Positions 1,348 through 53,666 are shown, counted from the first letter of the stretch. The stretch: DNA of 64,000 bases from an uncultured Verrucomicrobiae bacterium (GCA_963755515.1 CAVWKA010000003.1:4418-68417), one strand, 5' to 3'. Numbers and translations are program-made. The notes: generated by a model not told the origin, from the letters alone.

Positions 1348-1828
1348 AATTAAGTCTGGCAACAAACGCTTTCGAACAATCCCGGTCCGGTTGTGAATAA
1401 TCTTGAACGCGGTATCGAGAATGATCAGTCAGATGATGCCGCCCCTGACGGGGATTTTGCGTATTCCTGGCGTTTTTCTACAAAGATATTGCTCCTAAAC
1501 GGGGCTTGCTGAGGGTCCGAGCCGGTTGTGAAACGGGTGCGAGAAAAAATTCGCATCTTTTTATCTTTGCGTTACTATACACCGGAGAACAGACGCAGAG
1601 GAAAATGGGTTTCCTGCTTCGTTCGGATTTTTCAAAACCAAGGACATGGCGGCAATGAAACTGACAGGAAGGCGGAAGGGTGGCGGCAAAGGGATTGTCC
1701 AAAGAATTTCCAGCAAGAACCGGGAAGGCGCTCGCGCGCCGGGACGAACCGGGCGAGAACTGAAACGGCAGAGGCGAACGCCCGCGCCGACGCGGCACGA
1801 AGTGAATTTCAGCCGGGAGGGTTACGCG

Positions 1829-3380
1829 ATGATGATGCCGGAGGCCCAGCGGTGGCTGGCGGCGATTGTGGAATCGTCCGACGACGCGATTATTGGGCTG
1901 GATTCGGAGGGCAAAATCATCAGCAGCAACCAGGGGGCGTTCCGGCTCTACGGCTATAAACCGGAGGAAATGATCGGGCGCTCGGTGCGAATGTTGATGC
2001 CGGCGGACATCCGGGATGAGTTGCAGAAGATTTTTGAGCACATTCGGCGCGACGAAATCGTGATGCATTTCGAGACGGTGCGGCGGCACAAGGACGGCCG
2101 GCGCATTGACGTGTCGCTGACCATCTCCCCGATCAAGGATGCCAACGGCGAAATCATCGGCGCGTCCAAGATTGCGCGGGACATCACCGGACGGAAGCGG
2201 GGGGAGAAACAGTTGGGAGACATTTTGGCGCGGGAAAAGGCGGCGCGTGAAGCGGCCGAGGCGGCGAACCGCGCGAAGGACGATTTTCTGGCGGCGCTTT
2301 CGCACGAACTTCGCACGCCGCTGAATCCGGTTCTGCTGCTGGCGAGCGAAGCGGCGCGGAACACGGACCTTCCGCCGGGAATCCGGACGGACTTCGATAC
2401 GATCCGGAAGAACATCGAACTGGAAGCGCGGCTGATTGATGATTTGCTGGATCTCACGCGGATCACCCATGGGCAAAATTGCGCTCAACCAGAGCGAACT
2501 GGACGTTCATGGTGTCCTGAACGATGCGATTTCGACGGTGCTGAACGAGATTGAAGAGAAGCGGCTGGCACTCAAGCTGAATTTGACGGCGAAACACCAC
2601 AAAATTTTTGGCGACGCGGTCCGGATCCAGCAAATTTTCTGGAACATTCTGAAGAACGCGGTGAAATTCAGCCACGAAGGCGGGCGGATCACGATAGGGA
2701 CGCGGTCCGGCGGGGGTCAAATTGCGGTGAGCGTATCGGACACGGGCATTGGGATGAGCGAGGACGAACGGGCGCGCGCTTTTTCGGCCTTTTCGCAAAG
2801 CACGGAACATTTCGGTGGGCTGGGGCTTGGGCTGGCGATATTGCGGGCGTTGGTGGAACGTCATGCCGGCTCGATCAGCGCTGAGAGCCAGGGCAGGGGC
2901 AAAGGGGCGACCTTTGTAGTGAAGCTGCCGCTGATACCGGTGCCGGGAGGGGGAACCAAAGCGCGACAACAAAGCCGGACGGCCGGGGAGCGCGCGGCGG
3001 GGCCGGGAAATGCGCATGGCCGCCGCGTTCATGTTTTACTGGTGGAGGACCACGAGGCGACGCGCATGACGTTGACGAAGTTATTGCTGCGGCGCCGATT
3101 CCAGGTGGCGGAGGCGGGGTCGCTGGCGGAGGCGCGGTCACAAATGGAGAAACATTCGTTTAATTTGCTGATCTCGGACATCGGGCTGCCTGACGGCAAC
3201 GGGAACGATTTGATGGCGGAGTTTCAGAATAAATTCCATGGGAAGGGCATTGCGTTGACGGGATACGGCATGGACGAGGACATCGAGAAAAGCCGGTCGG
3301 CGGGATTTGCCGAGCATCTGACCAAACCGATTCGGATCGAGTCGCTGGAAATTGCGCTGGCGGCGATTGAAGGTAAATGA
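1829..3380 (+). pseudogene. PAS-domain hybrid sensor histidine kinase/response regulator, interrupted by one frameshift near 2470
   Basis: ORFs 1646..2554 and 2436..3380 are halves of one protein. It has PAS (AIVESSDDAIIGLDSEGKII), HisKA (DDFLAALSHELRTPLNP), HATPase_c (VSDTGIGM..GGLGLGLAI) and a receiver domain (VLLVEDHEAT..ISDIGLPDG..LTKP). Removing one g of ggg at ~2470-2472 gives LTRITHGKIALNQSEL, matching the paralog at 49785..51401. Start placed at ATG 1829; the Arg-rich upstream part of the ORF looks non-coding. Confidence 0.85.
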
Positions 3381-3397: not shown

Positions 3398-4907
3398 TTA
3401 TTTCCAACCACAACCCAGGGCCTTGATGAGGTTGACGGAAGCGGTCAAGCGCGCGCCTTCCAGTTGGACGGCGTCGTCTTGCTGTTGCAGGGCGGTGGTT
3501 TGGGCGGTGGCCACATTCAAGTAGGTGACAAGGCCGTCTTTGTATTGGTTGTTGGCAACCTCCAAAGCGCGCTTGCGCGGCGACGACGGCTTCGTTTTCC
3601 GCGTTCCATTCATTGGCGAGCAGTTGTTGCGCGGCCAATTCATCTTCCACTTCCCCGAACGCGGTCAAAACCGTATCGCGATAATCAGCGATTTGCTGGA
3701 GGTAAGCGGCGCGCGCGGCGGCGAGATTTGCGCGGTTGTAGCCGCCGGTGAACAGGGGCAACGTCAGGTCCGGTCCGACGGACCAAAGGCGGCTGGACCC
3801 GTCAAACCATGAACTGGCGCTAATGGATTGAAAACCCGCGAGGCCATTGAGGGTGACGGCGGGGAAGAAGGCCGCCTTGGCCACGCCAATGTCCGCGTTG
3901 GCTGCGGCCATGCGGCGTTCCGCGGCGGCGACGTCCGGGCGATATTCCAGCAATTGGCTGGGCACGCCGGGGGGGATTTCCGGGACCGACGCGATTTCGG
4001 TCGCGTTAGTGGTGATAAAAAAATCAACGGGCGACTGGCCGCAAATAATGGCCAGGGCGTGGAGTGTTTGAGCGCGGCGCAATTGGATATCGGGCAACTC
4101 GGCCTCGGCCGCGTGCAACAGCGTTGCGGCCTGGGCGACGTCCAAATCAGAAACCGCTCCGCCGTGCCGGAGATTTTCCGTGAGTTCCAGCGAGCGGCGG
4201 TAGGCCTCAATGGTGCCGGCGACCAGATTATATTGGCGGTCCATAGTCCGCAGGGCAAAGAAATCGTCGGCCACCTCAGCGGCGACATCGAGTTTGGCGG
4301 ACGCCAAATCGTCGGCACTGGCGACAAAGCGCGCCCCGGCCGCCTGGGAGAGCCGGCGCACGCGTCCCCACAAATCAAGTTCCCATCCAAGATAAACCGG
4401 GGCGGTGAAGGTGTCATAGGTTTCCGTGGCGCCGGCGGCGACGCCGTTTTGAGGTTCGTTGATACTGGTGCGCTGGCGGTTGATATCGCCGCCCGGGGTG
4501 CCGCCAGCGGTCAATTGCGGATAGAATTCCGAACGCGCTTCGATGGCGAGTTGGCGGGCCTGCTCAAACTGGGCGGCGAGGGCCGCGAGATTCTGGTTAT
4601 TGGTGAGGGCAAGCTGCTCCAGGTTGTCCAATTCGGGATTGCCGAACAATTCCCACCAGTTGCCGCGCGGCGCATTCGCGGACGGCTCGGCCACCAACCA
4701 AATCACTCCATTGGTCCCGGCGGTCACGGTGGTGAATGATTTTGGCAAGGGCTGGGTTGGCAACGCCGCGGGACGTTGATAATCGGGGCCGACGGCGCAG
4801 CCTGCCGCAAGGGTGGCGAGCGCAAACGCAACAAGAACGGTCGCCAATCCGCAATCGCGAACCGGCCATCTTTTTCCATTCTTCCTTCCGCAATCCACAT
4901 TCTTCAT
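3398..4907 (-). pseudogene. RND efflux outer-membrane factor lipoprotein (NodT/OprM family), interrupted by one frameshift near 3575
   Basis: ORF 3138..4907 carries a genuine N-terminal part with lipobox LATLAAGC. ORF 3398..3643 carries the true C-terminus. Removing one base near 3575 restores AVVAAQRALEVANNQYKDGLVTYLNV. ATGA start/stop overlap with the adaptor gene at 4904-4907. Confidence 0.85.
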
Positions 4908-41748: not shown

Positions 41749-42089
41749 TTAAAAATTTCTGCTTTCTTCTTTCTGTTTTTCCCCCGTCCCGCGCAGCAGC
41801 CCCCTTTTTTAGCCTTCAGCCTTTTATTTGAGGGTAGCGCGGACATTCCTGTCTGCGGGTTCGCGGGACATTCCTGTCCCGTGTTTCTCTTTTTCGTTTC
41901 AGCCTTCCTCCTGTTCATAACCTGTTGCCTTCTTTTCTTCATTCTTCACTTTGCGTTCGCAGGCAAACAGGGCTTCTGGAAATCACTCGTTGTTCCCTTC
42001 CGGAATACGTCCCCTCCAAAGCGCCAGAGGGCCGGCGCAGTCCAAAAGCTGGCCCGAATTTCCGGCGGTCTCCACGCAGTCGCTTGTCG

Positions 42090-42309
42090 TCTTGAAGTGC
42101 GGTGGCTGTGACACCGCTTTCAATCTGAGGGCGATCCCCAAATGTTCAAGCGTCACCTCAAGGATGAATCCGTGGACCTCGTTTATCTCGGTCCGCCCTT
42201 CAAATCCGCAACCCGAATACGCCGCCCCGCCGCAATAAGGCCGCCTTTGGCAAGTTATCTGCTCAAGAAAATCGGCCGTCGGCGCGGCATCTTCCAGAGT
42301 TGGCCGTGA
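42090..42309 (+). pseudogene. Degenerate N-terminal remnant of an N6/N4 DNA methyltransferase (DPPF motif region)
   Basis: My translation from 42142: MFKRHLKDESVDLVYLGPPFKS.., preceded in frame by ..EGDPQ. This fits the methylase N-terminal pattern YGDnlevLrrHikDESVDLVYLDPPFNS, with D mutated to G. Stops and frame changes lie on both sides, and no downstream catalytic domain is present. Confidence 0.5.
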
Positions 42310-42836
42310 ATCGAATCCGGTTGAATCGCTTTTGATAAGAGCAGTCTGCCTTTGAGTTTCCTGGAATCGGTTCCGGCCGTGGACGCCAAGCTCAAAGCGC
42401 CGAACACGGCGGATGAGAAGTTTGAGGACGTGGTGAATTCGGCGAAGAACGCGGCTGTCTTGGTGTTGGTGTATTGACATGAAAACTGGCTGATAAAACG
42501 GACACCAAAACAGCTAAAACGGGTATAATCGGGTTAAGCAAAAAATCAGCCGTTCCTCTTGCTGGTCGAAATTCAAATTGGCGCGGGACAGCAATTAGAA
42601 ACGGCTGAGAAAAACCAGGGGATTGGAAAAAAGGTTGAAAAAATGACTTGTAACCCTGTGGAGCAGGAAGAAAATCACGAATAAAGCCCACCCCGGTCGT
42701 GGGCATGAAACCAAACCCAACGCCGCTCTCGTCGCTCAGGGCTGACCTCGCACCCACATTTCGCCAAAAAGAGGCTTGATATGCTCCGGCCACGTGGCTA
42801 AAACCCCATTGTTGGGAAAATAACGCCCCGTAATCC

Positions 42837-45545
42837 ATGAAACTGAAAATGTTCATCTTTGCCTTTGCGGCAGGAGTGTGCGCTTTTGGGTCATCATCGT
42901 CTGCGGCTGGGAGTCAAATACTACGCGGTCAAGTACCGGCAGCAATCGCGCGGTTGCATCTGCAACCGATTGGTCGCCTGCCAGCCACCAATCGCCTGCG
43001 TTTAGCGATTGGCTTGCCTTTGCGGAACAAAGAATCGCTCACCGATTTGCTTGAACAATTATATGATCCGACCAGCCCGAACTATCATCATTATCTCACG
43101 CCACAGCAATTCACGGAGAGATTTGGACCGACAGAGGAGGATTACCAATCGGTCATCGCTTTTGCCAACACAAATGGACTCACAATAACCGGCACATACT
43201 GCAACCGCGTCGTGCTGGATGTGTCGGGCAAAGTTTCAGACATTGAAAAAGCCTTTCATGTCAACTTGCGCCTTTATCAACACCCCATAGAAGAGCGCAT
43301 TTTTTTTGCGCCGGACGTTGAACCTTCTGTGGACGCAGGACTGCCGATATTGGACATTAGTGGACTGGACAACTATACACTGCCACATTCAATGGTGCAT
43401 TTAGAGCCATCTGCGGAAAGTGGAATTCCAGACATTGGTTCTGCAACAAACGGTTATTACATGGGCAACGATTTCAGAAATGCCTATGTTCCCGGCGTAA
43501 CGCTTGACGGGTCGGGCCAAATTGTCGGGCTTGTGGATATTACTAATGGATATTACCCGGAAGACATCGAAGCTTACGAGCAGACCGCAGGGTTGACGAA
43601 CGTCACTTTGCAGAATGTCCTGTTGGATGGTGCAAGTGGAATTCCCTCTCCCGACGACAACGTCACTGAATCAGAATTGGACATCGAAATGGCGATTTCG
43701 ATGGCACCTCATCTGTCTGCCGTCGTTGTGTTTGAAGGTGATAAACTGAACGACATTCTCAACGCGATGGCTGCCAGTAACCAAATCAAACAATTCAGCG
43801 ATTCTTGGACCTTTGATGAACCGAGCAATTCAACTGGTGATCAAATACTTCAACAAATGGCTGCACAAGGTCAGTCGTTTTTTAAGCCATCTGGAGACGG
43901 CGATGCTTGGACTAGCCCAATTCACTGGCCCACGGATAGTCCTTGGGTTACAAGCGTCGGAGGAACAGAATTGTCAATGCAAGGTCTGGGAACTTCGTAT
44001 ACTTCTGAAACTGTTTGGAATGTTGGCTATAGTCCCCCAGGATGGTCTGAAAATGGGGCTGGTTATGTGGGAAGCGGCGGCGGAATTAGCTCCAACTTTT
44101 CCATTCCGTGGTGGCAGACCAATACCGACATGAGTGCTAACGGAGGTTCGGCGACCATGCGTAATTTTCCAGATGTTGCTGCAGTTGCTTACAACATTTG
44201 GGTCACATACGGCACTAATCAAGAGCGCGTAACGAGTGGCACCAGTTGCGCTGCGCCATTGTGGGCGGGCTTCATGGCACTGGTGAATCAGAAGGCGGCA
44301 AGCGTTGGCGTGCCGCCAGTCGGATTTGCCAACCCGGTCATTTATGCCATTGGCAACGGGACAAACTACACGGAATGTTTTCACGACATCACGACGGGCA
44401 ACAACACGAACAGCACTTCTCCGACAAACTTTTTTGCGACGACTGGTTATGATCTTTGCACGGGTTGGGGCACGCCCAATGGGAGCAATCTGATAACCGC
44501 CCTTATCTCCGAACCTTACAAGTCCATGCCGCCGGCCGTTACCACAGCCCCGCAGGGTCAAAGCGTTTCTCTCGGCGGCAGCGTCAGCTTTAACCTAACC
44601 GCCACTGGCGAATCTCCGTTGACACTCCAATGGTATCATGACGTAACGCCCCTCGCGAACGACGGAAGAACTCAGATTGCCAGCGCGCACGTCCTCGAAA
44701 CGGTGAATACTTCCAGCTTGACTATCTCGAATATCCAAACCAGTGACATTGGGAATTACTATGTGGAGGCGGCTAATGCTCTCGGAAGCGTCACGAGTTC
44801 CGTTGCGGTTCTAACGGTTTATGTCCCCGCGCCGCCGTTCACAATAACCTTCGACAATTTGCCCACGCCTAATCCAACTGGCGATGGCTCTTTTGATGGG
44901 TCAGTCCCGAACTCATACAGCGGATTAACTTGGAGTAATTTTTCCATTATCAACGGAGTGTTGGAGACCAATAGCGGCTACGCGGCAGGCGTCATATCCT
45001 CAAACAACGTCGCGTATCACGGCGGCACGAATTTCGCCAGCATCAGCAGCGCCGTGCCGTTCGACCTGCTTTCAGCTTACCTCACCGCCGCATGGAACGA
45101 CAGTTTACAAGTGCAAGTACTGGGTTATACCGCTTCAACGGAGACTTATTCCAATAGTTACACGTTGAGCGCAACCGGGCCAACATTTATCAATTTCGAC
45201 TATCTTGGCGTGAATGAAGTTGATTTTACTTCTTCCGGCGGCACACACCATTCGGGCTACGCTGGTAATGGAACGCAATTTGTGATGGATAATATGACGA
45301 TTGTGACTAATCTCGCCGTCAGCGTTTTGCCAACCATTCAAACGACTACGGAAGCGGGCAATACAATTATTTTCGGTTGGAATGCTATGCCGGGGCAGAT
45401 GTACCAAGTGCAATGCGAGACAAATTTGACCCAATCTGACTGGAATAATTTGGGTGGCGCCATCACCGCGACCAATTCGACGATTTTTGAAGTAGATTCG
45501 ATCAGCAACTCGCAGCGATTTTATCGCATTGTTCTGATGCCGTAA
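42837..45545 (+). CDS. S53 (sedolisin/kumamolisin-like) serine peptidase with pro-domain, Ig-like domain, an unassigned beta-rich domain and a C-terminal FYRI module
   Basis: Pro-kumamolisin activation region (RLAIGLPLRNKESLTDLLEQLYDPTSPNYHHYLTPQQFTERFGP), catalytic elements ESELDIEMAISMAP and SGTSCAAPLWAGFMALVNQ, and signal peptide MKLKMFIFAFAAGVCAFGSSSSAA. Confidence 0.85.
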   Translation: MKLKMFIFAFAAGVCAFGSSSSAAGSQILRGQVPAAIARLHLQPIGRLPATNRLRLAIGLPLRNKESLTDLLEQLYDPTSPNYHHYLTPQQFTERFGPTEEDYQSVIAFANTNGLTITGTYCNRVVLDVSGKVSDIEKAFHVNLRLYQHPIEERIFFAPDVEPSVDAGLPILDISGLDNYTLPHSMVHLEPSAESGIPDIGSATNGYYMGNDFRNAYVPGVTLDGSGQIVGLVDITNGYYPEDIEAYEQTAGLTNVTLQNVLLDGASGIPSPDDNVTESELDIEMAISMAPHLSAVVVFEGDKLNDILNAMAASNQIKQFSDSWTFDEPSNSTGDQILQQMAAQGQSFFKPSGDGDAWTSPIHWPTDSPWVTSVGGTELSMQGLGTSYTSETVWNVGYSPPGWSENGAGYVGSGGGISSNFSIPWWQTNTDMSANGGSATMRNFPDVAAVAYNIWVTYGTNQERVTSGTSCAAPLWAGFMALVNQKAASVGVPPVGFANPVIYAIGNGTNYTECFHDITTGNNTNSTSPTNFFATTGYDLCTGWGTPNGSNLITALISEPYKSMPPAVTTAPQGQSVSLGGSVSFNLTATGESPLTLQWYHDVTPLANDGRTQIASAHVLETVNTSSLTISNIQTSDIGNYYVEAANALGSVTSSVAVLTVYVPAPPFTITFDNLPTPNPTGDGSFDGSVPNSYSGLTWSNFSIINGVLETNSGYAAGVISSNNVAYHGGTNFASISSAVPFDLLSAYLTAAWNDSLQVQVLGYTASTETYSNSYTLSATGPTFINFDYLGVNEVDFTSSGGTHHSGYAGNGTQFVMDNMTIVTNLAVSVLPTIQTTTEAGNTIIFGWNAMPGQMYQVQCETNLTQSDWNNLGGAITATNSTIFEVDSISNSQRFYRIVLMP

Positions 45546-45640
45546 AAATCCGTACCACAATGACAAAAGCTGGCACATTTTGAGCAAAGATTTTCAGGCG
45601 GCCAGAGCCATGAGTTTATCGACATCGGCCTGGGCCATCC

Positions 45641-45800
45641 GTGGTTAATTCCGGTCTTCGTTTTCTTTGTTTTCTTTGTTTCCTTTTTTGTAAAAGTTTT
45701 TAGCCTTCAGCCTTTTTCTTTGCGGCCTTCGCGACCCTTGCGTGAGAAGGTGCTTTTCCCCATTCAAATTCGCGTCCCTTCGCGTTCATTCGCGTGAAAG
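45641..45800 (+). repeat. Copy A of a ~160-bp composite intergenic repeat; contains the 34-bp REP-like motif at 45715..45748
   Basis: gtggttaattccggtcttcgtt...tagccttcagcctttttctttgcggccttcgcgacccttgcgtgagaa..ccccattcaaattcgcgtc recurs at 46408..46590 in direct orientation. Confidence 0.75.
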
Positions 45801-45958
45801 CTTTTTTCTTTACCATCTGCGTTCATCTGCGTTATCAGCGGTTAATCCTGATTTTCCCCTCCAAAAATCACGTTCCTGGGCAACATGACGTGTTCCAGCT
45901 TCTGTGCTTAAATCGCCTCATGCGAAATTTGCAGTCGCCACCTTCGCGGAAAATTTAA

Positions 45959-46189
45959 ATGAAAAATTCCAATCTTGCCGAAACCAAATCGCTGCTGTTG
46001 AAAATAGTGGCCGAGGCCCGGGAATTGAGACAGGCGGCAGGACGCCCCGTGACCGACGCCGTCGCGGCCTGGCTTGCGCCGCAATACCTGATGGCCGCGC
46101 GCGACGAGCTGTCGGCAAAAGCCGGAGCCGCCCGCTACGGTGCGTTGCGCACGGCCGCCAAAGCCGCCAGCGGAAACCCCTCCTGCTGA
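45959..46189 (+). CDS. Hypothetical small protein (76 aa) lying between the two repeat copies
   Basis: ATG-initiated ORF MKNSNLAETKSLLLKIVAEARELRQAAGRPVTD.. with an Ala-rich helical look. No recognisable family, and overlapping alternative ORFs exist on both strands. Confidence 0.25.
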   Translation: MKNSNLAETKSLLLKIVAEARELRQAAGRPVTDAVAAWLAPQYLMAARDELSAKAGAARYGALRTAAKAASGNPSC

Positions 46190-46407
46190 ATCCGGGGCAA
46201 ACCCAGTCAAACCCAGTCAAACCGAATCCGGCCCAATCCAACCAATTTTTTATATGCAACAATACAACCGCAGCCGAAATACATAAGGGGCTTTGAAATG
46301 GAATTGTTTTTTAAAAAGAGACACCGTCTGTCCCGGTCCTTGCCGCCGTCAAATTCGCGTCAATTCGCGTCAATTCGCGGTTCAAATCTCCGTCAATCAA
46401 TGTTCCT

Positions 46408-46590
46408 GTGGTTAAATCCGGTCTTCGTTTCCTTTTGTAAAGTTTTAGCCTTCCCTGTCAGCCATAGCCTCAGCGGCGACGGCGGAAGCCTTCAGCCTTT
46501 TTCTTTGCGGCCTTTGTGGCCTTTGCGTGAGAATGAGCTTTCCCCATTCAAATTCGCGTCAGTTCGCGCCAATTCGCGTAAAATTTACTG
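46408..46590 (+). repeat. Copy B of the composite intergenic repeat, with a ~35-bp internal insertion
   Basis: Core 46486..46560 aligns with 45701..45776 with few mismatches by eye. A related tail motif (catctgcgt.atcagcggtt) occurs at ~45810-45845 and ~46872-46905. Confidence 0.75.
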
Positions 46591-46868
46591 TCGAATTTAC
46601 TGTCGTTTCCCCTTATATTACCCACGTTTACTCATGTTTACTCATGAAAATAATAATCCCCCGCAAATGAATGACACCGCGGAAAAATTGCACCGGCCCG
46701 GCCTTTGTTTCCCCCCGTGTAACTCTTCTTTGCATTCTCTGTACTGCAATACGTCCAAGTCACGTAACTTCGCGAGGATTTCTTGTGCAACTGCAAAACG
46801 TCATTTTGTTTCCTTTGGTTTCGGCTCTGCTGGCTGTGTTCTTTCGCGGCTAAAAAACCCGTCCGGCT

Positions 46869-47926
46869 ATGCGTGATCTGCGCCCATCTGCGTCATCAGC
46901 GGTTTCCCCTTTCCGCATTCTTGCGCTGCTCTTCTTCTCCGTCCTTTCTGTCGCCGCCGGTCCGTTCACTGTCCCCGTCACCCGCTGCGCGGATGAGATT
47001 TTGCGGCGCCAAACGTCCGACGGCGCCATTGTAATGGGTGCCATTCAAACAACCAATAACGTCAGTCCTTATTTTGCCAACCTTGCCGCCATCGGTTTGG
47101 TGAAGGCCTCGCAGGAAACCGGCAATCGTCGCTACCTGTCCGCGGCGGAACATTGGTTCGATTGGTACGCCGCGCGCATGAACCCGAACGGAACCGTCTT
47201 CGATTACACGGGTACCCCGGCAGCGTGGCGGTCCACGGGCGATTTCGATTCGACAGATTCCTACGCTGCCACGGCCTTGGAACTGCTGGATGCCATTGAA
47301 CACCAGGACAAAGTCTGGGCCTGCGCCCGCTATGCCAGGGCGTCTCGCGCCATCGCCGCCATCCGGCTAACTCTGCAAGCCAATGGTCTGACCCTGGCAA
47401 AGCCGGGTTGGCCGATTGCATATCCATGGACAACATTGAGGCGATGCGAGGACTGCGCGCGGCGGCGCGGATGGCGGCCGTGACCGGTCATCCCGCCGAC
47501 GCGGCCGCGTGGGGCCAAATGGCGAGCCGCATGGAGGCGTCCATCGCCACCAACCTTTGGGACACCGGGCAGGCCGCCTATTTAGTTGGAATTCAATCGA
47601 ATGGCGCGCGATTCGCGGCCCAAAATACCTGGTATCCCGGCTTGATGGCCGATTTGATGGCCGTGGGCCTGGGGCAGGATTCAAGCCGCAATCGAAATCT
47701 TTACCAACGGTTGATTGCTGAAGATGCGGCGACGATTCCGGCAAGGGCAGCGACGGAGAACGACGTGGAACATCTCGTCTGGTGGGGCTATGCGGCCCGG
47801 TCCGCCGGTGACCAACCGCGCTTCGAAAAGATCCAAGCGGAACTGTCCACGGCGATGGCCAAGCCTCTGCCCGTTGCCAATACCGCCTTGCTGGGACATG
47901 TGTGCCGCTTGCTGGCGGGACAGTAA
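46869..47926 (+). pseudogene. Secreted alpha-helical-repeat protein (possible alpha/alpha-toroid fold, function unknown), with one frame break near 47420
   Basis: ORFs 46869..47483 and 47408..47926 join as ..LAKPGWPIAY(P)MDNIEAMRGLRAAARMA.. if one base is added at ~47419-47422. Signal-like ILALLFFSVLSVAAG. The fold assignment is only a guess from the helix-rich, W/Y-rich pattern. Confidence 0.4.
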
Positions 47927-48246
47927 GTCAAAAAATTGAGCCGCGAGCAGGGATTGGACACCCATGTAAAATCAGAATTGTCGTATGGCCAAAGCCCAAA
48001 CGCGAAGCGTTCGAGCTTTACTTCCTCGAAGGCTTTTGAGCCGGAAGAAATCGCGATGTTCATTGGACAGCCGTCCAATTCTTTGCGGGAACTTATCGGC
48101 CTCCTTAAACGGCGGCTCCGGCCTAAATCTTTTCTAATTCTGGTTCCCGTCGCCATCACTGCCCCGAATTGACAGTCTTTTTGACCTGCGGATAAATAGT
48201 CATTTTACTTGTCATTAAAATTCGATTATAATGTGCAACTCTGGTT

Positions 48247-49732
48247 ATGAGTGACAAATCCAATGGAGAAAAGTCGCGATGCACAATGGGGATGAAGGGG
48301 TTGGACGACATTCTTGGTGGTGGCCTGCCCCGTAATCGCGTTTACCTTATAAAGGGAGATCCCGGCGTGGGCAAAACCACGCTGGCGCTGCAATTTTTGT
48401 TGGAAGGCGCGCGCCTGGGCGAGGGCGGCCTTTATATCACCCTCTCGGAAACCAAGGAAGAGCTGGCAATGGTGGCCGATTCGCATGGATGGGATTTGGG
48501 AAAAATTCATTTGTTTGAGTTGTCAGCCGTGGAAGAAAAACTCAAAGGTGAAACGGAAAGCACATTTTTTCATCCCTCGGAAGTGGAGTTAAATCGGACG
48601 ACAAAGGCATTGCTGGATGAAGTGGAGCGGGTGAAGCCGGCGCGCGTGGTATTTGATTCGCTTTCGGAAATGCGCATGCTGGCGGAAACCCCGTTGCGTT
48701 ATCGCCGCCAGATTTTGCAGTTGAAACAATTTTTTTCAGGGCGCAAATGCACGGTCCTCCTGCTGGACGACCTCACGTCGGGCGCGGAAGATTTGCAAAT
48801 TGAGAGCATTGCCCACGGCGTATTGAGCCTGCAACGGTCGTCGCCGGAATACGGCATTGCGCGCCGGCATCTGCAGGTCCAAAAGATTCGCGGTGTAAGA
48901 TTCCGCGAAGGCAACCATGATTTCGTCATCGAGAAAGGCGGGCTGGTGATTTTTCCGCGGCTGGTGGCGGCGGAACATCATTTCAACTTCCAGCGGGAAA
49001 GTTTTTCCAGTGAAATCGGGGAATTGGATGCGTTGCTGGGCGGCGGATTGGATCGTGGCACAAGCAACATGCTGATGGGGCCGCCGGGCACCGGGAAATC
49101 CACCATTGCCATTCTGTTCGCGCTCGTGGCGGCGAAGCGTCATGAAAAAGTGCTGCTTTTTATCTTCGATGAAACGGTGGGGACGCTGGTGAACCGCGCG
49201 ACGCAATTAGGAATGGAAATCGAGCCGCATATCAAAAGCGGGCTGATCGAAGCGCAAAAGATTGATCCCGCGGAAATTTCCCCCGGTGAGCTGGCGCACC
49301 AAATTCAATCGGCTGTATCACGGGACAACGTCCGCATGGTCATCATTGACAGCATCAATGGCTATCTCAATGCAATGCCCGGCGGAAAAGTATTTAAACC
49401 TGCAACTGCATGAGTTGCTCTCGTTCCTCAACCAGCAGGGCATTGTCACCGTCATGGTGCTGGCGCAGCAGGGGTTGGTGGGAAATATGCGGTCCACCGT
49501 GGACCTTACGTATCTGGCCGATACGGTGGTGATCTTTCGCTATTTTGAAGAACGCGGCGCGGTAAAACAGGCGTTATCTGTCATCAAAAAAAGGAGCGGA
49601 AATCACGAACGCACCATCCGCGAAATGAAAATCGGCAAAAATGGGATTGAGATAGGCCAGCCATTGATCAATTTACAAGGAGTGTTGACTGGCGTACCTT
49701 CATTTGTGGAAGACAAAAAAGGTGACGAGTAA
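48247..49732 (+). pseudogene. KaiC-family double-domain RecA-superfamily ATPase (KaiC homologue), with one frame break near 49379
   Basis: Two KaiC/RadA-like domains with Walker A GDPGVGKT and GPPGTGKS, and Walker B VVFDSLSE and VIIDSINGY. ORFs 48247..49413 and 49262..49732 join as [29 protein letters not shown] when one c of ccc at ~49379 is removed. Confidence 0.85.
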
Positions 49733-49784
49733 CACGGAATTGGCCCGGGCGGAAGCTGAAACATGGCCGACAGAGAAAGTGTCG

Positions 49785-51401
49785 ATGCTTGAACGCCGTG
49801 TTTTGATTTTTGCGCCGACGGGAAACGACGCGCGGCTTACCGCTGAATTTTTGGCAAAAAACAATGTGCCTCCGCAAGTGTGCTCCAGCGTGTCGGGGCT
49901 TTGCGACGAATTCCGCCGGGGATGCGGGGCGATTATTCTGGCGGAAGAAGCGTTGCTCGAAAGATCCATCCTCACGTTGGTCCAACATCTTGCCGCGCAG
50001 CCTGCCTGGTCGGACATTCCCATTATTCTCATTACCAGCGGCGGCGAAGTGAGCCAGACAGAACTGCGCCGCCTTGCCATTTTTGGTCCGGGCGGCAATG
50101 TCACGGTGCTGGAACGGCCGTTCCGTCCGGCCACGCTTATCAGCACCGTGGAAGTGGCCTTGCGCACCCGGCAGCGGCAGTATGAAGCGCGTGATTCGGT
50201 GGAGGAATTGAAGCGCGCCCACGATAAAGCGCAGGCCGCCTCGCGCGCCAAGGATGATTTTTTGGCCGCGCTTTCGCACGAATTGCGCACACCATTGAAC
50301 CCCGCCCTGTTAATCGCCAGCGAAGCCGCGGAGGATTATGCGCTGCCCGAAGAAGTGCGTTTGAACTTTGAAACCATTCGCAAGAACATCGAGCTGGAAG
50401 CGCGGCTGATTGATGACCTGCTCGATTTAACCCGTGTCACGCACGGCAAATTGGAATTGCAACTCGCTCCGGCGCCGGTCGGGCGGTTGATAGCGGATGC
50501 GATAGAAACGTGTCTGGACGATCTGAATCACAAGAAACTGTCCCTCGTCCGTGATATTCAATATTTTCAAAAGACCATTCTGGTGGATGGCGCGCGCATC
50601 ACCCAAATCCTTTGGAATTTGTTGAAGAACGCCATCAAATTCACACCACCGGGAGGCACGATTACGATTCGGACCCGCATCGAACAGGGTGGCGATTCCG
50701 AATATCTGACCATTGAAGTCCAAGACACCGGCCCCGGCATTAAACCGGAGCAGCTTGGACGCATCTTTGATGCGTTTGAGCAGGCCGACCGCAGCATCAC
50801 GCGGCAATTCGGCGGACTCGGTTTGGGTCTGGCCATCAGCAAAGCCATTGCCGAACGCCACAACGGCTCGCTCACGGCCGCGAGCGAAGGGGTTGGCCAT
50901 GGCAGCACCTTCACCCTGACACTTCCCTTCAAAACATCCGGGGAGCCAGAGATGGCCGAAACGGGCCTTTCGGATGCAAACAAGGTTTCGGATACCGTCG
51001 TTCCAATTGCGAGCACTGACCGTCCCCTAAGGATCCTGCTGGTGGAAGACCATCCCGACACCGCCCAATCGTTGAGCAACATCCTGGGGCGGCGCGGGTA
51101 TGTTGTGAAGATTGCGTTCGATGTGGGCGCCGGGCTTAAACTGGCCGCCGCCGAGTCATTTGATTTGGTGATGAGCGATCTCGGTCTTCCTGACGCCACG
51201 GGTTATGATTTGATGAGACAAATTCGCCAAAATTATTCCGTGCCCGGCATTGCCTTGAGCGGTTACGGAATGGAGGAAGACCTGCGCAAATGCCATGAAG
51301 CGGGATTTAGCGGGCACTTGGTCAAACCCATTGAAATTTCCCGGCTTGAAGAAGCAATCTCCCGAGTTGTCCACTGCAATAGAAAGGCAAAAACCTCATG
51401 A
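49785..51401 (+). CDS. Hybrid histidine kinase: N-terminal pseudo-receiver, HisKA, HATPase_c and a canonical C-terminal receiver
   Basis: The N-terminal REC-like fold (RVLIFAPTGNDA..GAIILAEEAL..PIILITSGG..LERPF) lacks the phospho-Asp and the conserved Lys. HisKA DDFLAALSHELRTPLNP; ATPase EVQDTGPGI..GGLGLGLAI; REC ILLVEDHPD..VMSDLGLPD..LVKP. Alternative GTG/TTG starts (49704/49722) would overlap the KaiC stop. Confidence 0.85.
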   Translation: MLERRVLIFAPTGNDARLTAEFLAKNNVPPQVCSSVSGLCDEFRRGCGAIILAEEALLERSILTLVQHLAAQPAWSDIPIILITSGGEVSQTELRRLAIFGPGGNVTVLERPFRPATLISTVEVALRTRQRQYEARDSVEELKRAHDKAQAASRAKDDFLAALSHELRTPLNPALLIASEAAEDYALPEEVRLNFETIRKNIELEARLIDDLLDLTRVTHGKLELQLAPAPVGRLIADAIETCLDDLNHKKLSLVRDIQYFQKTILVDGARITQILWNLLKNAIKFTPPGGTITIRTRIEQGGDSEYLTIEVQDTGPGIKPEQLGRIFDAFEQADRSITRQFGGLGLGLAISKAIAERHNGSLTAASEGVGHGSTFTLTLPFKTSGEPEMAETGLSDANKVSDTVVPIASTDRPLRILLVEDHPDTAQSLSNILGRRGYVVKIAFDVGAGLKLAAAESFDLVMSDLGLPDATGYDLMRQIRQNYSVPGIALSGYGMEEDLRKCHEAGFSGHLVKPIEISRLEEAISRVVHCNRKAKTS

Positions 51402-51548
51402 ACCTCGAACGGCTCTTCTTTTCAGCCTGTCGTTCGCATTGTTGCTGCCAGCTTTCAAATTTGGTCGTCGTAGCTTTTGTCATCACTTAACCATCTGCCT
51501 GAGTAAATTTTCTGTAACCTTTGCCGGGATTTTTCTAAAGTCAGGATA

Positions 51549-51701
51549 ATGGCGTCGAACGAAAGCCATCGTCCTGGCGATGGCGCGGCCATGGGCGCGC
51601 CGGCATTTGTGACGACTCATTGGTCGGTCGTGCTGACCGCGACCGGCGCGGACACCACCAAAGCCCGGGCTGCGCTGGAACATCTCTGGTGGCAAATCTG
51701 G
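51549..51701 (+). pseudogene. N-terminal remnant (~50 codons) of an ECF sigma factor paralogous to 52893..53666
   Basis: APAFVTTHWSVVLTATGADTTKARAALEHLWWQIW versus PTVFATTRWSVVLAAGHGDTTHAGAALEKLCRTYW in the intact sigma. Similarity is lost after ~51700, and no sigma-70 region 2/4 follows in any frame. Confidence 0.6.
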
Positions 51702-51939
51702 ATCAATTCGGACAGGAAGCACCTGTGCCCACCTCGGAATTTGAATACTCGCCGCCGGACCTGCAAATGGAGTGGAAATGGCAGGGTTGGGGGTATAATG
51801 GGACACCGGGAGACGGCAAACTCGCAGGCGCCTGGTCCCAGGGTGGGGGCGGCTTTTCATTGGTCTTTGAAAGAGGGAACTAATTTATTAGAATCACCCG
51901 TAATTCCAGGAAGTTTAATTTGTGCCAATCCGCGCTCCG

Positions 51940-52626
51940 ATGAAAGAGTTCTTATTGACCCTGCCATGGAACATCATCGGATGCTTCAGGGGCCGGAAGA
52001 TTTTTTGGCACTTTGCGGCAATTATTCTCACATGGATTCTCGTCACTTCGGGATTCGATTGGTTCTATTTTCACTCCACGCGAAGTCGTGAGCTTCGGTC
52101 ATGGATGTTTCCCGCCGTCATCATCGGCCAACTTTTGCCCATGACACTGCCGCTCCTGCTCTTACTGATTGGCGGCATTTTCAGAAGCGCCACCGCGAAA
52201 CGCACAGGATGGGCCATCGGCCAGGCTGCGCTTCTGGGCCTGGCCGTTTCATCCGCCTATAAAACCATTACCGGACGTCCCCATCCTCCGCGTGGCACGG
52301 CGTTGGATATGAGCCATGTTTTCCGGTTCGGTTTTATGCGTGGCGGCATTTTTTGGGGATGGCCTTCATCCCATGCGACCACTGCCGTTGCAATGGCGGT
52401 TACGGTTTTTATCCTCTTTCCGGAAAAGAAGTGGCTGCGTATCGCGGCCATTCTCTATGCCTGCTATATCGGCATCGGCGTTTCCATGACCATCCATTGG
52501 TTCTCGGATTCCGCGGCGGGAGCCATCATTGGAATCGTCATTGGGACGACGGTGGGGAAAAGTTATGCGGCAATGGATTTACTGAGTCGAGGAAATGGCG
52601 TTCAAAATGTCCCGCAAGGCACATAA
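51940..52626 (+). CDS. PAP2-superfamily membrane phosphatase
   Basis: Motifs KTITGRPHP (KxxxxxxRP), WPSSHATTAVA (PSGH-like) and SMTIHWFSDSAAG (SRxxxxxHxxxD-like), with several TM helices. Start at ATG 51940 (MKEFLLT). Confidence 0.8.
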   Translation: MKEFLLTLPWNIIGCFRGRKIFWHFAAIILTWILVTSGFDWFYFHSTRSRELRSWMFPAVIIGQLLPMTLPLLLLLIGGIFRSATAKRTGWAIGQAALLGLAVSSAYKTITGRPHPPRGTALDMSHVFRFGFMRGGIFWGWPSSHATTAVAMAVTVFILFPEKKWLRIAAILYACYIGIGVSMTIHWFSDSAAGAIIGIVIGTTVGKSYAAMDLLSRGNGVQNVPQGT

Positions 52627-52818
52627 CGCCATACGCCCCGCCCAAAGCGCAATTGATCGAATTGAGGCCCAGTGGCGGGAGTTTTGGAAATGAGCAACCA
52701 ATTGGGCTTCGGTTTGATTTGGAAGGCCAGCCCTGAGGAGGCACTCCGGGCAAAGCCCCATCGGCACATCCAGCGGCAGCGCTTTCCGGCAATTTGGGCA
52801 GATTTTAATCGTTTCCAT
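52625..52818 (-). pseudogene. Truncated, frameshifted remnant of a Ser/Thr protein kinase (N-terminal zinc-ribbon plus glycine loop only)
   Basis: METIKICPNCRKALPLDVPMGLCPECLLRAGL is the CPxC..CPxCLL N-terminus seen in kinases that follow this ECF-sigma type. In a second frame, FPKLPPLGLNSINCALGGAYGVM resembles the GxGxYGxV loop. Similarity ends at the PAP2 stop codon (~52626). Confidence 0.55.
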
Positions 52819-52892: not shown

Positions 52893-53666
52893 TCATCCCG
52901 ACAGCACGGACACCAAGTGGCGCAGTTCTTCGTCCACCTCGTCCGGTTCGGCCACAGTCTGGGCAATTTCGTCGCGCAGCAACTGGCGATAACGCTGGCG
53001 CAAGCGATACACGGCGGTCTTGACTGCGCCCTCAGTCACACCGAGTTTGACTGCCAGGTTGGCGTAGGGTTGGTCGTCGCCCTCGCCCACAAGGCAGGGG
53101 TGCAAGGCGGCGAAAAAAGCCTCCCGACCTTCCTGGTCGTATTCCGCGCGCAGCCTGTGCAGGACCTTATCGAGCAAGGTCAAAGCCCAACGCCGTTCGT
53201 AAATCTGCTCCGGAGTGACATTGTCTGACGGTTCATGACCGTAACGAGTCTCCGCCGTGTCCAATTGCAACGGCACGGGCACCAGGCCGCCCCCCCGTTT
53301 TTGCGCATGTGCCTTATCCCATTCATCGGCGAGAAAATGGTTCATAAGCGACAAGAGAAAGGAACGAAACCGTCCCCTTTGCTGGTCGGCACGTCCGATC
53401 CAGTTGCGTTCAAGCAGGCGCGCGAAAAATTCCTGGGTCAGGTCCTGGGCGTCCGCGGGCGAATGACCGCGGCGGCGCACGTAGGCGTAGAGCGGAAACC
53501 AATAAGTGCGGCAAAGTTTTTCCAGCGCCGCGCCGGCGTGGGTGGTATCGCCGTGTCCCGCCGCCAGGACGACCGACCAGCGGGTGGTGGCAAAGACGGT
53601 CGGCGGTTGGGCAGCGCCGGGAGTTGAAGGCGGATTAGACGGAGCAGTTTGGGTTGAAGTGCTCAC
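52893..53666 (-). CDS. ECF-type RNA polymerase sigma factor (subgroup genomically linked to Ser/Thr kinases)
   Basis: 257 aa. TTRWSVVLAAG..AALEKLCRTYWFPLYAYVRRRGHSPADAQDLTQEFFARLLE (region 2) and ..YANLAVKLGVTEGAVKTAVYRLRQRYRQLLRDEI (region 4). Confidence 0.85.
   Translation of the reverse strand: MSTSTQTAPSNPPSTPGAAQPPTVFATTRWSVVLAAGHGDTTHAGAALEKLCRTYWFPLYAYVRRRGHSPADAQDLTQEFFARLLERNWIGRADQQRGRFRSFLLSLMNHFLADEWDKAHAQKRGGGLVPVPLQLDTAETRYGHEPSDNVTPEQIYERRWALTLLDKVLHRLRAEYDQEGREAFFAALHPCLVGEGDDQPYANLAVKLGVTEGAVKTAVYRLRQRYRQLLRDEIAQTVAEPDEVDEELRHLVSVLSG

Follow-up and report, generated by a model that had tools for sequence, protein, structure and literature searches.

In this study, we examined a two-gene signalling locus on the plus strand of a 64,000-nucleotide stretch of DNA from an uncultured Verrucomicrobiae bacterium (GCA_963755515.1, CAVWKA010000003.1:4418-68417; hereafter called the window), in which a kaiC-like gene (48247-49732) is followed by a gene for a hybrid histidine kinase (49785-51401). 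On balance, we favour the view that the locus is an intact operon for a KaiB-independent Kai-type signalling module, in which the KaiC-like ATPase would be coupled to the kinase through the N-terminal domain of the latter. As judged from family alignments and a structural model, this domain is a pseudo-receiver, predicted to be incapable of phosphorylation. An earlier note on this DNA had described a double-domain KaiC-like gene of about 494 codons with a hybrid kinase 0-52 nucleotides further on, depending on the choice of start codon, a layout that is borne out by the open reading frames and by orthologue alignment. The same note had proposed that a KaiB-less KaiC homologue is functionally tied to a pseudo-receiver kinase, which the adjacency and co-occurrence data presented below support. 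Its estimate of the novelty was too high, since De Luca et al. had already described a corresponding gene order in 2011 and suggested that an N-terminal kinase domain interacts with KaiC (PMC3164672); the locus is a further, probably intact, copy in a verrucomicrobial metagenome-assembled genome. What is new here is the assignment of the pseudo-receiver fold, a profile of the family, and a quantitative survey of synteny, co-occurrence and co-evolution.

The pairing of the two genes was followed in 79 pseudo-receiver loci drawn from one-genome-per-species contigs, which span Verrucomicrobiota, Acidobacteriota, Bdellovibrionota, Planctomycetota and Alphaproteobacteria and include Nitrobacter vulgaris DSM 10236 and Rhodoblastus acidophilus DSM 137. 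A gene for the same KaiC type (48-89% identical) lies directly upstream on the same strand in 77 of them; of the remaining two, one is without kaiC and one lies at a contig edge. Most of the 77 gaps between kaiC and the kinase gene measure 8-133 nucleotides, and at one contig edge the gap computes as -15 nucleotides. No third conserved neighbour, be it a response regulator, a histidine phosphotransfer (Hpt) protein or KaiB, was found in the 79 loci. Co-occurrence was as strict in a phylum sample of 300 genomes, at least 90% complete and drawn evenly: the pseudo-receiver was present in 12, and the KaiC type (at least 42% identity) in exactly those 12, adjacent each time. Within a genus sample of 25 genomes, only two (G000 and G009) have either gene, and both have both. 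A phylogenetic survey of the pair, which the earlier note had suggested as a check, therefore finds the two genes to be neighbours nearly without exception. In RefSeq, orthologous pairs are found on 160 plasmid records, among them 40 from Agrobacterium, 18 from Sphingobium, 17 from Rhizobium and 13 from Sinorhizobium, where a 'hybrid sensor histidine kinase/response regulator' is listed beside an 'ATPase domain-containing protein' or a 'circadian clock protein KaiC'; the pseudo-receiver family also extends to Burkholderiales plasmids.

All of the 74 complete kinase partners that were scanned (from 73 loci and the window itself) are histidine kinases, of which 54 carry a C-terminal receiver, about 27 a PAS domain and six a GAF domain, PAS and GAF being inserted after the pseudo-receiver. 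The pseudo-receiver is thus the only constant input domain, whereas PAS, GAF and the C-terminal receiver are present in some kinases and absent from others. Pairwise distances between KaiC proteins correlate better with those between pseudo-receivers (r = 0.87) than with those between kinase cores (r = 0.57), and the difference is larger in partial correlations (0.80 for the pseudo-receiver versus -0.01 for the core). By this measure KaiC has evolved along with the pseudo-receiver and not with the kinase core.

In the kinase of the window, Pfam recognizes a HisKA domain (residues 155-221), a HATPase_c domain (268-383) and a true C-terminal receiver (417-525), and the protein is cytoplasmic. 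The core residues H165, N278, N282, D314, G316 and G318 are invariant in 74 homologues. No significant Pfam match was obtained in residues 1-150. A profile built from the N-terminal family, however, matches receiver domains exclusively (PhoB, CheY) when compared with the PDB, the PhoB receiver being best with an E value of 2.5e-6 and an alignment over the whole domain. An alignment-based AlphaFold model of the domain has a (beta-alpha)5 topology (predicted local distance difference test, pLDDT, 87; predicted template modelling score, pTM, 0.85) and supersedes a poor single-sequence model (pLDDT 55). All of the 50 best Foldseek matches listed for the domain are receiver domains, with template modelling scores of 0.65-0.79. 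Mapped onto PhoB, the acidic DD pair is replaced by A10-P11, the phospho-accepting Asp by E54 and the conserved Lys by R111, whereas the Thr is kept (T84). It is because T84 alone is left of the active-site quintet that we regard the domain as a pseudo-receiver, and the earlier description of the N-terminal 120 or so residues as receiver-like, but without phospho-Asp and Lys, is confirmed by this mapping and by the predicted fold. The best sequence match in the PDB is a constitutively active PhoB D10A/D53E mutant, and A10 and E54 are the same two substitutions; this likeness is suggestive only. Across the family, P11, D15, E55, W75, S76, P79, E110, P112, R129 and Q132 are invariant in the alignments, and the motifs APTGND, GCGxxLAEE, QPxWSDxP and NVxLLERPFRP stand out. 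Among 1.84 billion representative proteins, 5,559 clusters match the profile at E values of 1e-3 or below and 4,116 at 1e-10 or below. The domain is always N-terminal in the 150 best matches listed, and the genome of the window has a single copy. Pfam sees a receiver in just six of 78 family members (best E value 0.003), and since it does not recognize the domain, the family escapes any census of pseudo-receivers built on PF00072.

The kaiC-like frame of the window is covered by two open reading frames, 48247-49413 (388 amino acids) and 49262-49732 (156 amino acids), the stop codon being at 49730-49732. Both pieces match the KaiC family PF06745, the first with an E value of 2.6e-63, and the second copy of the domain runs into the second frame. 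Read through, the 494-residue protein aligns over residues 12-491 with KaiC structures in the PDB (best 8zn5, E value 7e-51; Synechococcus KaiC about 1e-40), and orthologues at 70-89% identity are unbroken proteins of 480-500 amino acids. Residue conservation was read from an alignment of 68 subfamily sequences. The two Walker A motifs cited in the earlier note, GDPGVGKT and GPPGTGKS, are both present at the positions given in Table 1. The predicted catalytic pairs and phosphorylation sites are conserved variants of those of KaiC, with one acid kept per catalytic site; position 421 holds T in 58 of the 68 sequences and S in the other 10, and Y422 is invariant. The Lys/Arg residues at SeKaiC K224/R226 and K457/R459 are retained. 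The chain ends close to where the cyanobacterial A-loop begins and therefore has no KaiA-binding tail. The product is a KaiC-family protein, presumably hexameric, and not an equivalog of the clock KaiC.

The earlier note had found neither a kaiA nor a kaiB gene in the window. We widened the search to the whole 5.29-Mb genome, which is 85% complete, and obtained no match over the cut-off for kaiB (PF07689) or kaiA (PF07688). A KaiB gene just outside the window, which in the view of the earlier note would have turned the locus into a standard KaiBC cluster, was thus not found. None of the 12 module-bearing genomes of the phylum sample has kaiB, whereas nine other genomes of that sample do, beside a different KaiC of about 30% identity, and the two Kai systems never occur together in one of the 300 genomes. 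Sister species in the genus have kaiC-kaiB-kaiB clusters instead (G003:C15:22573-24926 and G005:C121:147-2499), in which KaiC is about 30% identical to that of the window. Among five further module carriers only Rhodoblastus has kaiB, on another contig: in this phototroph (R. acidophilus DSM 137; L097/G045) the module pair is present together with two kaiB genes on contig C38:49753-50279, and therefore two Kai systems can coexist outside Verrucomicrobiota. Three genomes with the module and no kaiB contain a second KaiC paralogue of 29-31% identity (G153:C1:27337-28776, G222:C1:844752-846197 and G234:C1:1524762-1526195), which may represent a further KaiB-less KaiC type.

According to the model that we favour, the KaiC-like ATPase, with both ATP sites kept and a Thr-Tyr pair where cyanobacterial KaiC autophosphorylates, would act on the kinase through the sole input domain of the latter, the pseudo-receiver with its DD to A-P, Asp to Glu and Lys to Arg replacements. 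The pseudo-receiver would link the kinase with KaiC, in the simplest case through docking on the KaiC ring, and the ATP/ADP state of KaiC or the phosphorylation state of T421/Y422 may set the autophosphorylation of the kinase. The phosphoryl signal would then pass to the kinase's own C-terminal receiver (D465) and on to a phosphotransfer partner. A module of this kind would report metabolic state, stress duration or hourglass-type time and would not be a self-sustained clock. The physical contact, the direction of signalling and the physiological role are what we infer; direct docking is plausible because of the strict adjacency and co-occurrence of the genes and the co-evolution of KaiC with the pseudo-receiver. 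It is also conceivable, although we put this forward tentatively and think it rather less probable than the general scheme, that the pseudo-receiver is a natural 'locked-on' receiver in the role of KaiB or SasA, which binds the KaiC ring according to its T421/Y422 or nucleotide state, the two proteins forming an hourglass timer or energy gauge wired into a phosphorelay.

The main rival to this model is that the pseudo-receiver is an intramolecular gate, autoinhibitory or dimerizing as in ShkA or CikA, and that KaiC acts elsewhere on the kinase (on its DHp domain, CA domain or true receiver) or indirectly, with the two genes still belonging to one pathway. Known pseudo-receivers of hybrid kinases do bind the HisKA domain of their own protein and act as inhibitors of autophosphorylation (PMC12632262), and the conserved residues of the family are found in the loops of the former active site (APTGND, AEE, ERPFR), which would also fit a small ligand or an intramolecular partner. 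However, the pseudo-receiver co-evolves with KaiC and not with its own kinase core, it almost never occurs without the KaiC type upstream, and it stays constant amid varying kinase cores and PAS or GAF insertions, and we therefore consider a mainly intramolecular role unlikely. Much less probable still is a RadA/RecA-type or other non-signalling ATPase that is merely an operon-mate of the kinase and follows no Kai-like logic. In favour of it, the protein stays under the NCBIfam cut-offs for KaiC, RefSeq names the orthologues 'ATPase domain-containing protein', and there are weaker matches to RadA, RadB and DnaB models; the best matches by far, however, are to full-length double-domain KaiC, the phosphosite region, catalytic acids and Lys/Arg positions align, and if there were no direct functional tie, an exclusive pairing with one kinase input domain over five phyla would be difficult to account for. 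A KaiB/SasA-like thioredoxin fold at the kinase N terminus, as suggested for RtaNt of Ramlibacter, would make the module a strict SasA-KaiC analogue. For Ramlibacter, identities of 16% to the SasA N terminus and 10% to KaiB were reported (De Luca et al., PMC3164672). Such a fold was rejected here on the grounds of the five-stranded (beta-alpha)5 model and of sequence and fold matches that, as far as listed, are all receivers and include no KaiB, SasA or thioredoxin; PF07689 has no match in the genome of the window, the proposal is already refuted for the pseudo-receiver family, and we give it hardly any credence. Several observations nevertheless count against a Kai-type coupling through the pseudo-receiver. 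At a single locus, in a Chthoniobacterales genome (L030, JAATET010000021.1), the 7 kb upstream of the pseudo-receiver kinase contain no kaiC; related genomes in our surveys share ancestry and are not independent samples; and the correlation of the distances could also come from swapped or saturated kinase cores. In addition, the ATPase scores below the cut-offs of the NCBIfam 'circadian clock protein KaiC' equivalogs (242.6 versus 408 bits for NF006799 and 144.1 versus 546 bits for TIGR02655) and has S-E in domain CI where KaiC has E-E, and because of these two points a KaiC-like biochemistry is an assumption on our part.

The kaiC frame is broken once, near 49379, by an extra C in a ccc run, as the earlier note had seen and as the reading frames and a second assembly now confirm. 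This second assembly (ENA ERZ25039501, contig_81900; L018 below) is 99.9% identical to the window, reads cc at the site and is in frame there, and a 454-residue product from it in the protein database is 100% identical to the read-through protein and runs across the junction. Over window positions 48134-52638 (about 4.5 kb) the two assemblies differ four times, by one substitution and three single-base indels: the extra C of the window, which the comparison places at 49378, and two surplus bases in L018, a T after window position 48357, which breaks its kaiC, and a G after 51030, which breaks its kinase gene. Since indels outnumber substitutions three to one and each disrupts a frame in just one of the two assemblies, the break is very probably an assembly or sequencing error and kaiC not a pseudogene. 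It could be argued that the break is genuine, with kaiC a recent pseudogene in this strain and the kinase an orphan or decaying. The extra C is present in the window as given, and the patchy occurrence of the module in the genus means that module loss does occur. Nevertheless, the near-identical L018 is in frame here and carries indels of its own elsewhere, at least two further genes of the window (for a glycosidase-like protein and a PAS hybrid kinase) are split by single-base shifts, and apart from one base kaiC is free of stops and defects and 89% identical to intact orthologues, all 67 full-length ones being unbroken and in frame at the site. The frame break thus does not look genuine and fixed, a state that the earlier note had said would speak against its proposal; we regard the pseudogene explanation as improbable and hold an intact kaiC-like gene in the organism to be highly likely.

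The module resembles what De Luca et al. (2011) called the 'second kaiC context', in which a specific kinase, its N terminus conserved and weakly receiver-like, always comes after kaiC genes with SY, TY or SF sites in genomes without kaiB (PMC3164672). The locus agrees with it in every feature compared: the gene order on one strand, with a 52-nucleotide gap, the TY phosphosite and the lack of kaiB as far as its 85% complete genome goes. In Ramlibacter tataouinensis the pair Rta_04330 (KaiC) and Rta_04340 (Nt_HK) is co-transcribed according to reverse transcription PCR in a genome without kaiB or kaiA, and it was proposed that the kinase interacts with KaiC via its N terminus and that the pair forms a rudimentary hourglass (PMC3164672); this idea was taken up again in 2025 (PMC11847603). 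Both the N-terminal domain of Ramlibacter and that of the window have been described as weakly receiver-like, a comparison made by description only. Ramlibacter, however, belongs to the Betaproteobacteria and the host of the window to the Verrucomicrobiota, and the authors of 2011 were inclined to see a KaiB/SasA-like module where the fold found here is that of a pseudo-receiver (PMC3164672). In Pseudomonas, KaiC-like proteins bind the neighbouring kinases in two-hybrid and pull-down assays, for which kinase residues 1-138 suffice; they have a role in stress resistance and not in a circadian clock, and they are phosphorylated at one or two sites, following culture age (Terrettaz et al., bioRxiv 10.1101/2022.01.26.477890). 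As in P. putida (PP_3834/PP_3835) and P. protegens CHA0, KaiC stands alone in the locus, with no KaiB, and shares an operon with a (hybrid) histidine kinase; the N-terminal domain in Pseudomonas was, however, called PAS, and that of the window is a pseudo-receiver. Set against the Pseudomonas pairs, loci of the window type have no third conserved gene. A search for named homologues from the Nitrobacter kinase returned Alphaproteobacteria only and no link to Ramlibacter or Pseudomonas, and literature searches on KaiC in Verrucomicrobia, KaiC in Agrobacterium and KaiB-independent KaiC found nothing relevant.

The likeness to cyanobacterial clock output is that KaiC controls the histidine kinases SasA and CikA by protein contact and that the CikA pseudo-receiver, too, has no phospho-Asp. 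SasA, however, docks by a KaiB-like thioredoxin fold, and the cyanobacterial output needs KaiA and KaiB, neither of which was found in the genome of the window. The analogy with CikA drawn in the earlier note is a loose one: the CikA pseudo-receiver lies at the C terminus, and its partner on the KaiC complex is KaiB and not KaiC (PMC12632262), and the domain of the window is nearest to ordinary PhoB/OmpR-type receivers. The KaiBC hourglass systems of purple bacteria (Rhodopseudomonas palustris, PMC4794148) and the kaiC-kaiB-kaiB clusters of the sister species are similar in that a non-cyanobacterial KaiC serves timing or stress and is often followed by a kinase, but these systems have kaiB beside kaiC, ST or SS phosphosites, and a KaiC that is only about 30% identical. 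In ShkA of Caulobacter crescentus, too, a pseudo-receiver gates a hybrid kinase and answers to a binding partner and not to phosphorylation; this pseudo-receiver, however, binds cyclic di-GMP and sits between kinase and receiver, and no KaiC is involved.

The features of the locus are collected in Table 1. The kinase could start at a TTG at 49704, which would overlap the kaiC-like gene, or at the ATG at 49785 (MLERRVLIFAPTG...), and the latter is favoured since orthologue alignments begin there.

Table 1. Position and basis of the features of the kaiC-like/hybrid kinase locus (window coordinates)
Feature	Position	Strand	Basis and remarks
Promoter-like site, TTTACT-17-TATAAT	48204..48232	+	Consensus scan alone, 10/12 matches; 15 nucleotides 5' of the kaiC-like start codon; not functional evidence
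kaiC-like gene, double RecA/KaiC-domain ATPase, 494 amino acids read through a one-base frame break	48247..49732	+	Open reading frames, Pfam, PDB alignment, orthologues
Walker A, domain CI, GDPGVGKT, residues 37-44	48355..48378	+	G-K-[TS] invariant in 68 orthologues
S67-E68, at position of catalytic E77-E78 in Synechococcus KaiC CI	48445..48450	+	KaiC alignment; S-E invariant in 68 orthologues
Walker A, domain CII, GPPGTGKS, residues 278-285	49078..49101	+	G-K-[TS] invariant in 68 orthologues
D308-E309, at position of catalytic E318-E319 in KaiC CII	49168..49173	+	KaiC alignment and orthologue alignment
ccc run with one extra C (frame break); indel from assembly or sequencing most likely	49378..49380	+	Second assembly L018 reads cc
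T421-Y422 ('TY' type), at KaiC phosphorylation sites S431-T432	49508..49513	+	KaiC alignment
Spacer between the genes, 52 nucleotides	49733..49784	+	Shorter or gone with alternative kinase starts 49704, 49722, 49740
Hybrid histidine kinase gene, 538 amino acids	49785..51401	+	Unbroken in the window; a different indel breaks the L018 copy
N-terminal pseudo-receiver, residues 1-136	49785..50192	+	Family alignments, PDB profile matches, AlphaFold, Foldseek
Pseudo-receiver motifs APTGND; AEE; T84; ERPFR	49812-49829; 49941-49949; 50034-50036; 50112-50126	+	Family alignments
HisKA dimerization/phospho-acceptor domain	50247..50447	+	Pfam; H165 at 50277-50279, invariant in 74 homologues
HATPase_c catalytic domain	50586..50933	+	Pfam; N and G boxes invariant
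C-terminal true receiver	51033..51359	+	Pfam PF00072, E value 1e-23; acidic pair E-D, phospho-Asp D465 (51177-51179), Ser, K514

Another hybrid kinase, with PAS, HisKA, HATPase_c and receiver domains, is encoded at 1646-3380 on the plus strand over two frames (1646-2554 and 2436-3380), a split that is a probable further single-base assembly error. The earlier note had given it as a PAS paralogue at 1829-3380 that may be a second output or input branch. The paralogue does exist, its core and receiver being 40% identical to those of the KaiC-linked kinase; however, it has PAS in place of the pseudo-receiver, and nothing links it to the module. Upstream of kaiC, a glycoside-hydrolase-like gene with a weak MGH1-like match (46869-47926, plus strand) is divided into frames of 204 and 172 amino acids because an A is missing at 47423; in L018 the gene is undivided (420 amino acids). 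L018 has about 207 extra bases (4515-4721) at window position 46875 and 11 substitutions within 46 bases at 47030-47075, at the start of this gene, which represent either strain variation or local misassembly in one of the assemblies. Further upstream, 42837-45545 (plus strand) encodes a 902-residue secreted sedolisin-type (pro-kumamolisin) peptidase with immunoglobulin-like domains, which is not conserved beside the module; nor are, downstream, the genes for a PAP2 phosphatase-family membrane protein (51922-52626, plus strand) and an extracytoplasmic function (ECF)-type sigma factor (52893-53666, minus strand). The G+C content is 0.50-0.52 over window positions 42000-50000 and 0.55-0.61 in the rest of the window, and this, together with the patchy distribution in the genus (two of 25 genomes), hints at horizontal acquisition of the module.

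KaiB-less KaiC homologues are common in non-photosynthetic bacteria. The locus described here falls into a sharply defined class, in which KaiC goes together with one kinase input domain, and the KaiC-pseudo-receiver module is widespread in soil bacteria. Because the class is present in genetically tractable organisms, for example on the megaplasmids of Agrobacterium and Rhizobium, the ideas of docking and of a timer or stress sensor are directly testable. If the pseudo-receiver should prove to be a 'locked-on' receiver, more than 4,000 sequence clusters, including those of Agrobacterium, Rhizobium, Sphingobium and Nitrobacter, would be among the commonest Kai-type outputs outside cyanobacteria.

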